DNA of 64,000 nucleotides from an uncultured Bacteroidales bacterium (GTDB lineage Bacteria; Bacteroidota; Bacteroidia; Bacteroidales; JAGOPY01): positions 16,882-80,881 of the forward strand of contig CAZXWD010000001.1 of NCBI GenBank assembly GCA_964644135.1, read 5' to 3'. The notes below the pieces were generated by a model. That model was given only the letters and a program-made list of their open reading frames with translations. It was not told the origin of the DNA and did not search any database. The stretch's first letter is position 1. Each line of letters begins with the position of its first letter. Shown here piece after piece: positions 3,425 through 7,478 of the stretch. Position numbers and translations under genes: made by a program.

Positions 3425-5345
3425 AAATGATTATTCGGATTTTGGCATTGAGAATGTCGAGCCGATAAAGAAAAACTCAAGTGGAGAGGTTTATGTTCTA
3501 TGCCCTTCTTGCGAACCATTTCGCAGGAAAAAGGGCGAGAAAAAACTGGCTGTAAATGTCGAGAAAGGAACCTGGTATTGTCAGCACTGTGGCTGGACAG
3601 GAGGATTGACTCCCTATGGATGGAAGAGAAGCAACAAAAGTATCGATGTTGTCAAATCCTGGCAAGAGCCTTCTGAAAAAATGTATCATTACTGGAAGTC
3701 GCGTAAGATTTCAAGGGAAACGGTAAATGCCAGAGAAATAAAAATGAGCCGTGAGCAAATAAGGCAAAAAGACGGCTCTTTTTTAACCACTAATTGCATG
3801 GTCTTTATCTTTCGTCAGGACGGGGCAACCCGGATGGTCAAGTATCGGGATAAGAGGAAAAACTTCAAGATCGAGAAGAACAGTACAATGATCCTGTGGG
3901 GGCTGCAATTTATCAAGAGCTCCGATGAAATGATCATTACTGAGGGCGAACCAGATGCTATGAGCTGGCACGAAGCAGGATATATGGCTGCTGTAAGCGT
4001 TCCTTCAGGTACTCAAATAACCCAGTCTGAAAGAGAAGAATACTTGAAGACCGGAAAGCTAACCGTTCAGAATCATCTCTCACTGTCTTATTTTGACAAC
4101 TGCATTGAATTTGTCGAGAAGAAGAAAATGATTTACATCGGAACCGACAACGATGCGGCTGGTCATAAATTAAGGCTTGAGATAGGAAGAAGATTTGGTT
4201 ATGAAAGGTGCAAAATACTCGATTATGGATTGTTTGACTCCCCTGATGGAAATGGCGGCAAAAGGCCCTGTAAGGATGCTAATGAAGTTTTGCTTCATAA
4301 TGGCAGCGAAGCATTAAAATATGTTTTCGAACAGGCTAAAGACTTCCCTATTGATGATATAGTGACTTCTGAGGAGGTGCTTCCTGAGATATACAGCCAA
4401 TATGATTTTGGATACCGGACAGGTAAATCAACAGGCATAGAAAGGCTTGATCCTCATTTTACGTTAAGAATCGGTCATTTGATTGCGATTAACGGTTATG
4501 GAGGCATGGGAAAAAGTACCCTGGCGTTAAACATTGCCTTGCTCACCTCAGTCATGTATGGCTGGAAATGGGGCGTTTACCTTCCGGAAAACTATCCTGT
4601 TCCGGATGCTTACATGCTGATGATGGAAATGTATATCGGTAACACGCTGAACTATTTTGACAAGTCAAGGGCAGCTAAAAGCGAAATTGACCGGGCAAAT
4701 GAATTTATCAAGGACAGGATCTTCTGTGTAAATAATAAAAACGGTTATTCACCTGAAGAACTCAGAAACATCAAGCAAAGCCTGATTATGAGGCATGGAA
4801 TAGTCGGTTTCATAACCGATCCATGGAATGCCCTGAACCATCCAACAGTAAACAATCTGGATTCTTATCTTGAAAGAGAATTGAGCGCAGAACAGCGTTT
4901 GGCCACAAACAATAAAATCATTAACATCATTTGTGTTCATCCGCCAACTCCTGACAAAGCATACCGAAAAAACCCGCCAGCACCCAGTATTTATGAAATA
5001 ACCGGAGGGGGTGTTTGGAGCAAGAAAGTATATGATGTGATATGTGTCCACCAGGAAGACAGAGATCTTCGTGATAATATTTCTGACACCTCTACTCATG
5101 TTCATGTTCAAAAAACCAAGCATCACAAGCTGGTAGGAATGCCGACAAAAGGCGAACCGGTACTGCTGGAACTCGACAGAAAATCACAACGGTTTATACA
5201 GCCACCAATAAATGTCAAGGTAAATGATGATGAAGAATTTGCCAATGAAAAAGTGCTGGACAGAACCGATCCATTCGTGCAGGCATTGAAAGCACGAGAA
5301 GAAAAAGACAAAAAAGACGAAGAAGAAAATTTGTTAGTATTTTAA
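3414..5345 (+). CDS. bifunctional primase-helicase (T7 gp4-like)
   Basis: Zn ribbon CPSCEP...CQHCGW. Toprim motifs ITEGEPDAMS and GTDNDAAG. DnaB/RecA-type Walker A NGYGGMGKST and Walker B VGFITDPWN. Acidic tail ends EEENLLVF. Confidence 0.85.
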   Translation: MKFENDYSDFGIENVEPIKKNSSGEVYVLCPSCEPFRRKKGEKKLAVNVEKGTWYCQHCGWTGGLTPYGWKRSNKSIDVVKSWQEPSEKMYHYWKSRKISRETVNAREIKMSREQIRQKDGSFLTTNCMVFIFRQDGATRMVKYRDKRKNFKIEKNSTMILWGLQFIKSSDEMIITEGEPDAMSWHEAGYMAAVSVPSGTQITQSEREEYLKTGKLTVQNHLSLSYFDNCIEFVEKKKMIYIGTDNDAAGHKLRLEIGRRFGYERCKILDYGLFDSPDGNGGKRPCKDANEVLLHNGSEALKYVFEQAKDFPIDDIVTSEEVLPEIYSQYDFGYRTGKSTGIERLDPHFTLRIGHLIAINGYGGMGKSTLALNIALLTSVMYGWKWGVYLPENYPVPDAYMLMMEMYIGNTLNYFDKSRAAKSEIDRANEFIKDRIFCVNNKNGYSPEELRNIKQSLIMRHGIVGFITDPWNALNHPTVNNLDSYLERELSAEQRLATNNKIINIICVHPPTPDKAYRKNPPAPSIYEITGGGVWSKKVYDVICVHQEDRDLRDNISDTSTHVHVQKTKHHKLVGMPTKGEPVLLELDRKSQRFIQPPINVKVNDDEEFANEKVLDRTDPFVQALKAREEKDKKDEEENLLVF

Positions 5346-5352
5346 TAGAACA

Positions 5353-5360
5353 GATTATCT
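5353..5360 (+). promoter_or_regulatory. GATTATCT box upstream of ATPase gene (candidate promoter element)
   Basis: Second exact copy of the 958-965 8-mer, starting 36 nt upstream of the ATG at 5389. Confidence 0.25.
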
Positions 5361-5388
5361 TTATTATTAATCTAAAAAAAACGAAAAA

Positions 5389-6273
5389 ATGGCAGATCTA
5401 ATCTTAGTAGAAGGACACACTGCAACAGGAAAATCATTTTCCATACGTAACTGTGATCCAAAACAGACAGCCGTAATCAACGGCGACATGAAACGTCTTC
5501 CTTTTGCCGGGGCAAAGACATTCCAAAAGGTGCTGAAACCTGACGGAGTGACCCAAAGCATCAAAGGAAATATGGTTTATGTGAATAAAATGCTTAACCC
5601 TACCAAAAGCATGGCCTCAGTTAAACAGGAACTCAAACAGCCCAGGTATCAAAAGCCTGGCATATACGAATACATCCGCTTGTATCATGATCTCCGTCCG
5701 GACATAAAACTTGTCCTGGTCGACACTATCAGCCATGCAATGCTTGAAAGCGTCATGAGAGATCTATATATGGATGACTGGAACAAATTCAAGGTATTTG
5801 CCGAGGAGTTTTATGAAATAGTCCAAATGATCAAAGGCCTTTCCAGGGAGGATTTTATGGTTGTTATTTATGCTCATGTCGAATATGAAAAGGACGACAA
5901 CGATAATCTTGTTGCTCAACTGAAAATCCCGGCAGGAAAATTCACAAGGGAAGCGATTGTTCCGGAAAGTCATTTCACCGTTGTGCTCCATTCCGATGTG
6001 GTACCAACCGAAGACGGCCCGGAATACATCTTCTGGACCCAAAACGTCAATGGCAAAACAACGGCTAAAAGTCCGGCAGGAATGTTTCCGGATGTAAAAA
6101 TTGACAATGACATTGATTATGCCGTAAGGTGTTACAATGCTTTTTACGAAGGGGAAGACATTCCTGAGGCAAATGAAGAGGATACAGAACAGGCTTCCGA
6201 AGAGCCAAAAGAAAAAACAGGTCAGAAAAAACAGGAGAAAAAGGAAGAGCCTGTTGATGACGAATCATTTTAA
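5389..6273 (+). CDS. RecA-fold AAA ATPase (Sak4-like)
   Basis: Walker A LVEGHTATGKSF and Walker B LVLVDTISH. Sits directly upstream of the SSB-like gene. Acidic tail ends VDDESF. Confidence 0.6.
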   Translation: MADLILVEGHTATGKSFSIRNCDPKQTAVINGDMKRLPFAGAKTFQKVLKPDGVTQSIKGNMVYVNKMLNPTKSMASVKQELKQPRYQKPGIYEYIRLYHDLRPDIKLVLVDTISHAMLESVMRDLYMDDWNKFKVFAEEFYEIVQMIKGLSREDFMVVIYAHVEYEKDDNDNLVAQLKIPAGKFTREAIVPESHFTVVLHSDVVPTEDGPEYIFWTQNVNGKTTAKSPAGMFPDVKIDNDIDYAVRCYNAFYEGEDIPEANEEDTEQASEEPKEKTGQKKQEKKEEPVDDESF

Positions 6274-6294
6274 ACAATAAAAACAATAATTATC

Positions 6295-6924
6295 ATGAGT
6301 GACGAAAATGTAGGCCTACCCGCTACTCAAAAAGCATCTGATGGAACAAGTTATATCCCGGCAGGACTTCACGTTGTTGTGATCCATTCGATCAAACCTT
6401 TTACGGATGACAAAGGCATTCCTAAAAAAGACAGGAAGGGAAATCCGGGGCTTGAAATTGAGTTTGCCGAGGTAGTTGAAGCTCCGGAAGGATCAAACAA
6501 GTTCAAGAAAACAGGAAATACGGCAAGAACGTTTTTCTATTACAGCGAGCTTCCCCCGGGAGATCCGAAAAGGGATTGTCCGAGCGAATGGAAACTGGCA
6601 GGATTGAAAAAAGCCTTGAAAATTCCTGAAGAGGACACCTCTGATTTTGACAAGGTACGCAAGATCAAGTTGTGGGCGGCCATTAAAAAAGTTGTCAAGG
6701 GCGATTCAGTATTTCACGAACCGGCGGGGAGATTCTTTCCATTTGAAGGATTGGATAAGAAACCTGCCCTTGAAGGTGATCCGACCTTAAAGCAGTACAA
6801 GGACAATCCTGGAGGCATCTTTTACGAAGAAAGAGCAGACAGGGGATCTTCCAGGTCTCCCAGAGGATCGGAAAGCGCTCCTCAGGAACCATACACACCA
6901 CCAGCAGACGATGACGAATTTTAG
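6295..6924 (+). CDS. putative single-stranded DNA-binding protein (DUF669-like position)
   Basis: Follows the Sak4-like ATPase. Disordered Gly/Ser/Pro region, then an SSB-type acidic tip PPADDDEF. Confidence 0.4.
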   Translation: MSDENVGLPATQKASDGTSYIPAGLHVVVIHSIKPFTDDKGIPKKDRKGNPGLEIEFAEVVEAPEGSNKFKKTGNTARTFFYYSELPPGDPKRDCPSEWKLAGLKKALKIPEEDTSDFDKVRKIKLWAAIKKVVKGDSVFHEPAGRFFPFEGLDKKPALEGDPTLKQYKDNPGGIFYEERADRGSSRSPRGSESAPQEPYTPPADDDEF

Positions 6925-6926
6925 CG

Positions 6927-6950
6927 AAAGGGGCCGAAAGGCTCCTTTTT
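6927..6950 (+). terminator. rho-independent terminator
   Basis: Stem ggggcc, GAAA tetraloop, stem ggctcc (one G-U pair), followed by T5. Confidence 0.55.
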
Positions 6951-6965
6951 ATTAAACTTAATCTT

Positions 6966-7478
6966 ATGGCAGAACCAAACATAAAATTTTTAGGTAAGGT
7001 TATCAATGGCAGGATGTTGTTTGACAGACCAAAGCTTTTCCAAAACATTCTTGACTCGCTTGAAGAACAAGAATTTGAACTGACAATAAAAAAGAAATCA
7101 AAGCACAAGACAAGGCTCCAGCTGGCATATTATTGGGGCGGAATTATCGCAGGTACCTGTATGAAATGTGAAGAGTTTGCAGGGTGGACAAAAGAAGAAA
7201 TAGACGAATATTTCAGGTCAACCCTCAGAAGCTACACAAAAAGCATTCTACATACCGATTACAAGACCGGAAAAGCCAAAGAAGAAATAAGACGAGTCAC
7301 TGAACGAATAAGCGAATACGACAAAGAACAACTCGCTGAATATATCGAAGACGTGGTCAGGCATCTTGCCCTTAGCTTTGGAATAACCGTCTTGGATCCG
7401 GAAGAATACAAATATGCAAAGTATATTTCTGTACAGGATCAAACAGATAAAGACAAGGAAGAAGAAGATTATTTCTAA
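6966..7478 (+). CDS. hypothetical protein (weak NinB/Orf-like resemblance)
   Basis: ATG start, 170 aa. KTRLQLAYYWGG loosely recalls the RSLDQNRKLWA segment of lambda NinB. Acidic tail ends EEEDYF. Confidence 0.3.
   Translation: MAEPNIKFLGKVINGRMLFDRPKLFQNILDSLEEQEFELTIKKKSKHKTRLQLAYYWGGIIAGTCMKCEEFAGWTKEEIDEYFRSTLRSYTKSILHTDYKTGKAKEEIRRVTERISEYDKEQLAEYIEDVVRHLALSFGITVLDPEEYKYAKYISVQDQTDKDKEEEDYF

Follow-up and report, generated by a model that had tools for sequence, protein, structure and literature searches.

Acidic, aromatic-tipped C-termini on five replication and recombination proteins of a crAss-like phage: candidate docking peptides

Short terminal peptides that let many replication and repair enzymes compete for one acceptor are familiar from the clamp-binding motifs, namely the beta-clamp consensus QL[SD]LF and the eukaryotic PIP box. 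In bacteria, the C-terminus of SSB, the protein that binds single-stranded DNA (ssDNA), combines a disordered linker with an acidic tip and a terminal Phe (DDDIPF), one peptide that serves many partners in DNA metabolism; here it is SSB that bears the tip and the clients that bear the pockets. In phage T7, both the primase-helicase gp4 (tip SNDTDF) and the ssDNA-binding protein gp2.5 (tip ADEDGDF) carry acidic tails with a terminal Phe: the gp4 tails bind two basic patches on the DNA polymerase gp5 (PMC12593628), and the gp2.5 tail binds the front basic patch of the polymerase, with the terminal Phe being essential (PMC12339929), and in addition makes contact with the helicase and has a stimulating effect on the gp6 exonuclease (PMC4124056). 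In phage HK620, the sak4 gene is followed by that of an acidic-tailed SSB of the DUF669 family, and binding of Sak4 to SSB-coated ssDNA depends on the last six residues of that SSB (NDYPPF; Hutinet et al. 2018, PMC5928155). We describe here a 64-kb stretch of uncultured phage DNA (contig CAZXWD010000001.1; 'the window' throughout) in which five proteins of replication and recombination all end in an acidic run capped by Phe, and we consider what such tails, which may well be docking peptides, could be addressed to.

The five proteins, with their positions in the window, are these:

3414-5345, + strand: primase-helicase of the T7 gp4/Twinkle family, 643 amino acids (aa), ending KKDEEENLLVF (tail codons 5310-5342)
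5389-6273, + strand: Sak4-like RecA-core ATPase/annealase, 294 aa, with a K/E-rich linker of ~40 aa and the tail EEPVDDESF at 6244-6270
6295-6924, + strand: putative ssDNA-binding protein, 209 aa, with a globular part of ~175 aa, a P/S/A-rich linker and the tip PPADDDEF at 6898-6921
6966-7478, + strand: NinB/Orf-family recombination mediator, 170 aa, with the tail DKEEEDYF at 7452-7475 (phrog_72, E 1.5e-10)
58822-59793, - strand: PD-(D/E)XK exonuclease, 323 aa, with a C-terminal extension of ~40 aa and the end DIDIDDF at 58825-58845 (phrog_298, E 3.9e-19)

An earlier note, made from the bare sequence, had listed these C-termini, and on re-reading of the open reading frames (ORFs) all five are exactly as it wrote them. 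Its names for the primase-helicase (phrog_239 at E 9e-60, plus Toprim), the Sak4-like protein (phrog_2872 at E 1.5e-36, and AAA_24) and the exonuclease are borne out by profiles, the protein that it called simply by its 170 residues is the NinB/Orf mediator by its phrog_72 match, and its 'SSB-like' is a putative label, drawn from context and two weak matches.

As the motif, we took at least four D/E in the nine residues preceding a terminal F, a pattern with a frequency of 0.2% among all 10-mers in the called proteome of the window. At the 50 called C-termini 0.098 occurrences are expected and five are observed (binomial P = 5.6e-8), terminal F is found at five of ten acidic C-termini (P = 2e-5), and a six-frame scan of all ORFs of at least 20 aa (n = 878) returns the motif in these five alone. 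Indeed, the carriers make up 5/9 of the DNA-metabolism proteins and 0/41 of the others (Fisher P = 6e-5). The binomial test and the 878-ORF scan together rule out chance or composition as the cause of the tails. We also rejected a common DNA element, an overlap constraint or a stop-codon context at the gene ends: the final codons (TTT/TTC), the stops (TAA/TAG) and the downstream DNA all differ, and apart from the codons the five ends share no DNA feature. A C-terminal degradation tag was set aside, given that the motif is confined to DNA-metabolism proteins, and we know of no bacterial degron that matches an acidic run plus F. The tips themselves fall into two classes, because four are of the form [DE][DE]x0-1F (DDDEF, DDESF, EEDYF, IDDF) and that of the helicase, NLLVF, is hydrophobic. 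An acidic tail alone is not the specific feature, as can be seen from a 276-aa protein without a family match (59793-60623, - strand), whose extremely acidic C-terminal region of ~75 residues ends EEEEE without an aromatic; its gene and the exonuclease ORF overlap by one base, 59793, where the former ends and the latter begins.

Conservation was followed in a clade of 11 genomes (the window, L170, L004, L005/L087, L172, L006, L173, L174, L175, L007/L089 and L088), whose helicases are 34-94% identical to that of the window and all of which share the order SNF2 helicase, 228-aa protein, helicase, (Sak4), SSB-like protein, NinB and UDG. Beyond the clade, a wider set comprised loci around gp4-like helicases, 167 of them drawn from viral and metagenome collections and 80 more from bacterial genomes and metagenome-assembled genomes, mostly Bacteroidota. 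The helicase is a true T7 gp4/Twinkle homologue: its AlphaFold2 (AF2) model has a pLDDT of 91, and the best Foldseek matches in the PDB are T7 gp4 (5ikn, 1q57, 6n9v) and Twinkle, at E 5e-25. It ends in F in 31 of the 33 closest homologues and in W in one, with clade tips LLVF, LTLF, ITLF, DLCF, WESF, IEGF, FEGF, FDGF and GTEW, and in the wider family F-ending helicases number 82/158 in the viral and metagenome loci and 43/76 in bacterial genomes. By this comparison, the terminal F of the primase-helicase is an old feature. One homologue, P0031, is 995 aa long, ~350 residues longer than the others, and has a precomputed match to PF14528 besides Toprim_2; the extra length and this match suggest an inserted element such as an intein. 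A gp4-type primase-helicase also sets this phage apart from the separate DnaG and DnaB usual in crAss-like phages (PMC7886860).

For the helicase tail alone, one might suppose a variant of the beta-clamp-binding motif, tethering the enzyme to the host sliding clamp and standing outside the acidic code. The tips of close relatives are of x-L-x-L-F type, with NLLVF, DLTLF, DITLF and LDLCF fitting QL[SD]LF in part, and a phage without a polymerase has to link its helicase with host Pol III. Against this, there is no conserved Gln and the clade tips WESF, FEGF, FDGF and GTEW do not fit, and we regard it as a slim prospect.

The second old bearer of the tip would be the SSB-like protein. The end of the 209-aa protein reads RGSSRSPRGSESAPQEPYTPPADDDEF, which is to say a linker, an acidic tip and a terminal aromatic, and it is this architecture, together with sak4 adjacency and two weak matches, that makes it a putative SSB. 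Its gene directly follows sak4, an order kept in L004, L005, L006, L170, L172 and L174, and ~80% of sak4 genes adjoin an ssb gene (PMC5928155). The weak matches come from one orthologue each of seven, to phrog_378 SSB (E 0.034) and to DUF669 (PF05037, E 0.057), the family of the HK620 and N4-type SSBs and one noted for acidic tails (PMC4889955). The 209-aa protein itself has no significant Pfam or PHROG match, no PDB profile match and no tblastn match in cultured phages, and hhalign comparisons with T7 gp2.5, the phi10:1 SSB and the HK620 SSB were not significant (E 0.083 for the last). A word-index search with it returned a single homologue, 91% identical, and an AF2 model built from a two-sequence alignment has a pLDDT of 36, unusable for a fold search. 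All seven homologues end in [DE]x[FY]. What is striking is that in 11/11 clade genomes the protein in the SSB-like slot carries an acidic tip with F, Y or W as its last residue, and that in 4/11 the slot is taken by a non-homologous family (hhalign probability 0.1%; phrog_862 in L088) with the same linker and aromatic tip:

L173, 13432-14136: unrelated SSB-slot protein
L175, 14291-15007: unrelated SSB-slot protein
L007, 14196-14957: unrelated SSB-slot protein
L088, 14162-14872: unrelated SSB-slot protein

These end NETF, TEDW, GDEW and EEEW, often with Trp, and the comparison speaks for a non-orthologous replacement in which the tail was kept; no homology was found between the two SSB-like groups, or between either of them and PRTRC_E. 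Directly 3' of the SSB-like gene of the window, at ~6930-6955 (+ strand), the hairpin GGGGCC-GAAA-GGCTCC with T5 after it resembles an intrinsic terminator within the replication block.

On the remaining three proteins the tail has a shorter history. Between the Sak4 proteins of the window and L170 the linker has diverged and the last eight residues, EPVDDESF, are identical, and such drift of the linker around a fixed end is what short linear motifs usually show. The tail is also present in L006 (VTADSF) and absent from L004, L005, L172 and L174; of the 20 nearest representative clusters, 13 have a terminal F (SDNF, DSSNF, GENF), and Sak4 proteins further off end at a conserved PNDL..YY helix, the terminal Phe being kept in the nearest subfamily only. 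For NinB, the tail is kept in L170 (KEEEEYF), and the orthologues in L004-L007, L172 and L175 have no tail and are 149-161 aa long. In the exonuclease alignment, aspartate 150 and D171-x-K173 are invariant, which we take for the PD-(D/E)XK nuclease signature, and PF12705 is matched by one homologue. The extension and tail of the exonuclease are confined to the window protein and P0087 (89% identity, NYDINIDDF); homologues of at most 38% identity stop ~40-60 residues earlier. Taken together, the NinB and exonuclease tails are restricted to the window and to relatives 86-95% identical, orthologues of at most 50% identity being without the whole extension, and both are recent additions. The tails are thus seen as appended extensions, with 294 versus 243-266 aa for Sak4, 170 versus 149-161 for NinB and 323 versus 231-267 for the exonuclease. 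Conservation in homologues, then, is found for the helicase and the SSB-like slot, in part for Sak4, and not for NinB or the exonuclease.

The exonuclease gene lies upstream of the terminase. Adjoining it, at 58495-58803 (- strand), is a 102-aa protein (phrog_2428) whose counterpart in the close relatives L259 and L260 belongs to the Acb2/Tad1 hairpin family, and L004 also has such a gene; a protein of this type is a candidate sponge for anti-phage signalling nucleotides.

Sister genomes of the clade add further bearers of the tip. Their PRTRC_E proteins, encoded in a ubiquitin-like/ThiF cassette, end IEDDF, DENDF, AEDEW and QEDW, and an SbcC-like ATPase ends EEEEW, so that the bearers so far are helicase, SSB analogue, Sak4, NinB/Orf, exonuclease, PRTRC_E and SbcC-like ATPase. 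Tips can also match within a genome, for example AEDDF on the SSB-like protein and IEDDF on PRTRC_E in L005, or GDEW and EDEW in L007. In the wider family, a -PF helicase tends to occur together with another -PF tail (18:4 versus 6:14, Fisher P 0.0015, uncorrected for phylogeny). In the window, a ThiF-like E1 occupies 70-870 (+ strand), which in relatives is the last gene of a cassette of Prok_Ub, Prok-E2_D and PRTRC_E (L005 4171-7741; L006 3597-7333; L175 656-2456), and the window's own copy would lie just upstream of base 1.

Could the tails be directed at the host? They might mimic the host SSB tip and address the host pockets for it, on the Pol III holoenzyme or on restart and repair factors. 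No phage polymerase has been found, and a phage of that kind needs host contacts; in addition, related Bacteroidota phages and prophages such as Tenacibaculum phage JQ and Cellulophaga phage phi10:1 end D-[LIV]-P-F, the canonical SSB tip, on the helicase and on a small acidic-tailed protein, and PF ends 31 of 76 helicases found in bacterial genomes. Unannotated or unknown-function proteins of 87-125 aa that end DDDLPF recur near gp4-like helicases on marine, gut and Bacteroidota phage contigs, as in these examples:

L054, 5217-5504: small protein ending DDDLPF
L135, 13488-13859: small protein ending DDDLPF
L167, 33768-34082: small protein ending DDDLPF

On the other side, the tips in the window and clade (DDDEF, DDESF, EEDYF, IDDF, EDW) lack [IL]-P, no clade genome has a -PF tip at all, and the penultimate Pro matters in Escherichia coli, where the ssb113 allele is P176S (cited in PMC4118853). 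The T7 tips (DGDF, DTDF) are just as unlike those of a host, yet they address phage proteins. Host-directed mimicry seems to us an unlikely account of the tails, albeit the strongest of those that compete with the one we favour.

The earlier note had gone further and proposed a single hub, probably the phage DNA polymerase encoded outside the window, that would exchange all five tails much as T7 gp5 does for gp4 and gp2.5. The window is crAss-like phage DNA, because its 1327-aa protein (33756-37739, - strand) matches the Crassvirus muzzle protein (PF25731, E 4e-78), and it is part of an uncultured phage genome of ~81.6 kb, as a 100% identical helicase lies on an 81,592-base NCBI contig. In support of a polymerase hub, the helicase is a true gp4 homologue and both T7 tails bind gp5, most crAss-like phages encode PolA or PolB (PMC7886860), and, although relatives cover roughly 8 kb of the ~17.6 kb beyond the window, ~9 kb has been neither seen nor inferred. 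As for tracing that remainder, a cultured close relative was not found by blastn, and the best tblastn matches were below 30% identity; an IMG/VR scan with a single protein gave no relative, an exact DNA scan of genome contigs gave no match, looking up the 100% identical helicase by exact protein gave no record, look-ups with window-edge proteins reached only short contigs that added ~1.7 kb, and a terminase-based scan yielded one contig, which was non-syntenic. The note was right that the window encodes no polymerase: motifs of families A and B (PolA/PolB) are absent from it, as they are from the ~250 related loci (167 + 80). Against the hub, moreover, none of the 11 clade genomes has a DNA polymerase within 10 kb of its helicase, and where crAss-like phages have a polymerase gene it adjoins the primase gene (PMC7886860). 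Two complete genomes of cultured phages without an annotated polymerase keep both tails, with EDDVPF on the helicase and SDDLPF on the SSB-type protein of phage JQ, and EDEVPF and ESDLPF on those of phi10:1, and the epsilon group and some environmental crAss-like phages are without a polymerase (Yutin et al., PMC7886860). The polymerase as the hub for all the tails is not upheld by these findings, and we give it little chance.

Our preferred explanation, which we would place only a little short of an even bet, is that the tails are portable docking peptides for one or more common acceptors that are phage-encoded and not a polymerase, with the helicase hexamer and the SSB-ssDNA complex as the best candidates. 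They would be C-terminal short linear peptides of the T7 gp2.5/gp4 and bacterial SSB type, in which an acidic run is carried on a flexible extension and the terminal aromatic side chain, together with the free carboxylate, might plug into a basic, hydrophobic acceptor site. The peptide would be old on the primase-helicase and the SSB-like protein, and would have been copied secondarily onto Sak4 and most recently onto NinB/Orf and the exonuclease. These enzymes are expected to act on SSB-coated ssDNA, and a common tail could let them compete or exchange at the acceptor site(s), at forks and at recombination intermediates. Such acceptors might be the primase-helicase in its hexameric form and, on the SSB-like protein, the surface that binds DNA, or the SSB-ssDNA complex, forming a network rather than a single polymerase hub, and the more hydrophobic helicase tip may address a separate site. 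The repeated gains, the tip match within genomes and the retention through non-orthologous replacement argue for a common acceptor rather than for something in the bearer's own fold; tips without the host-like [IL]-P mildly favour a phage-encoded one, as in T7; and the helicase hexamer and the SSB-ssDNA complex come to the fore because no polymerase is in view. Most likely, then, the acceptor is encoded by the phage and is something other than its DNA polymerase. The shared docking code proposed in the earlier note thus gains indirect support, from a non-random motif, fixed tips on drifting linkers, repeated gains and a tip kept when the protein in the SSB slot is replaced; binding, a common acceptor and its identity are what we infer.

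Several points weigh against this reading. The helicase tip is chemically unlike the other four, and the SSB nature of the 209-aa protein is inferred. Because the NinB and exonuclease tails are limited to very close relatives, their selective value is shown only over ~5-14% protein divergence. The -PF covariation statistic is confounded by shared ancestry, and in L173 the tips of the SSB-like and PRTRC_E proteins differ (ETF versus EDW). Homologues of Sak4, Orf and the exonuclease are known, moreover, as receivers of SSB tails and not as bearers. Bacterial exonucleases receive such tails. The Orf-family protein YbcN binds SSB through the SSB tail (PMC4118853), and HK620 Sak4 needs the last six residues of the neighbouring DUF669 SSB (PMC5928155). 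The tails on Sak4, Orf and the exonuclease could act in cis instead.

This last idea can be taken further, to tails with no common partner at all, which would work in cis or within the bearer's own oligomer, mimicking ssDNA, inhibiting the bearer or aiding assembly, for example by folding back into the DNA cleft or by supplying a Phe 'ball' for Sak4 self-assembly. All five proteins are DNA-binding, and in T7 gp2.5 the acidic tail is reported to fold back over the site with which the protein itself binds DNA. The same is reported for E. coli SSB (cited in PMC5928155). In the AF2 helicase model, residues 620-642 are helical and the bulk of the C-terminal segment packs as a helix against the protein (pLDDT 94 for residues 621-630), with the last three residues below 50. 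What action in cis leaves unexplained is why unrelated folds should converge on an aromatic at the very last position, why tips match between proteins of one genome, and why a non-homologue that takes the place of the SSB-like protein still has the tip; in T7, besides, cis and trans roles coexist. We think it improbable, more so than mimicry of the host.

The genes around the five tailed proteins can be summarised briefly:

70-8865, + strand: replication/recombination block, with ThiF, an SNF2-type helicase, the 228-aa protein, primase-helicase, Sak4-like ATPase, the 209-aa protein, NinB/Orf-like protein and UDG
2521-3207, + strand: 228-aa protein directly upstream of the helicase, conserved, ending KDELFK and outside the five

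Orthologues of the 228-aa protein end KKFE, RKFD, GLFI and VEDLF, and in marine relatives the protein at the same position, with replication-initiation and primosomal PHROG matches, ends NHDELF; the end of the 228-aa protein may be a related near-terminal motif. Elsewhere in the window, a single ORF of 5232 aa (15937-31635, - strand) has as its sole Pfam match a circularly permuted YpsA SLOG domain, its counterpart in L006 being 5558 aa long with ART-PolyVal and NADAR domains. Among the tail genes, a 522-aa protein (12442-14010, - strand) contains long collagen-like G-x-y repeats (Pfam Collagen, E 2e-46) and is adjoined by a glycosyltransferase-TPR protein at 10461-12401.

How, then, do the docking peptides that we favour compare with the systems from which we set out? 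The likeness to T7 is plain, in a helicase homologous to gp4, in acidic tails with a terminal Phe on both the helicase and an ssDNA-binding-type protein, and in tips without Pro. The differences are that T7 has two tailed proteins and the window five, that T7 uses its own DNA polymerase as the acceptor, of which no counterpart is found here, that the SSB-like protein has no detectable similarity to gp2.5, and that the helicase tip is hydrophobic. With the bacterial SSB C-terminus the tails share linker, acidic tip and terminal Phe, relatives of the phage carry the canonical D-L-P-F, and the proposed role, one peptide for many DNA-metabolism partners, is similar; the window tips (DDDEF, DDESF, EEDYF, IDDF, NLLVF), however, depart from the consensus D-D-D-[IL]-P-F, with its Pro at -1 and hydrophobic residue at -2, and it is the client classes, namely annealase, mediator, exonuclease and helicase, that bear the tip. 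HK620 offers the same succession of sak4 and a gene for an acidic-tailed protein, but its Sak4 has no tail of its own, and membership of the 209-aa protein in DUF669 is hinted at (E 0.057, in one orthologue). The clamp-binding peptides resemble these tails in principle, yet ours are acidic with a terminal aromatic, and only the helicase tip is loosely similar.

In sum, the type of docking peptide is known, but it is found here on more proteins than in any studied phage. A phage SSB and a gp4-like helicase with Phe-tipped acidic tails are textbook knowledge from T7, and a tail on the SSB next to Sak4 has also been described; what is new is a tip on five proteins, with further bearers in sister genomes and with recent gains, kept across non-homologous SSB-like proteins in an apparently polymerase-less crAss-like lineage. 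It is conceivable, though we hold this larger picture more loosely than the docking peptide itself, that the tip is a portable address label in that lineage, attached to whichever ssDNA-processing protein needs access to the fork, and that the SSB interactome has its polarity reversed, so that the clients carry the tip and a single phage or host acceptor, be it the helicase hexamer, the SSB-ssDNA filament or the host replisome, reads it. If the acceptor is common, this would be a natural case of one docking peptide coordinating the enzymes of replication, annealing, mediation and resection, and one gained on new proteins over evolutionary distances so short that the system should be easy to dissect. 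In practical terms, acidic-aromatic tips could flag replication and recombination proteins among the many unannotated genes of such phages. The finding also raises the question of what binds the conserved Phe tip of gp4-like helicases in the many polymerase-less Bacteroidota phages and prophages; to answer it would shed light on how the host replisome is taken over by crAss-like phages and their relatives.

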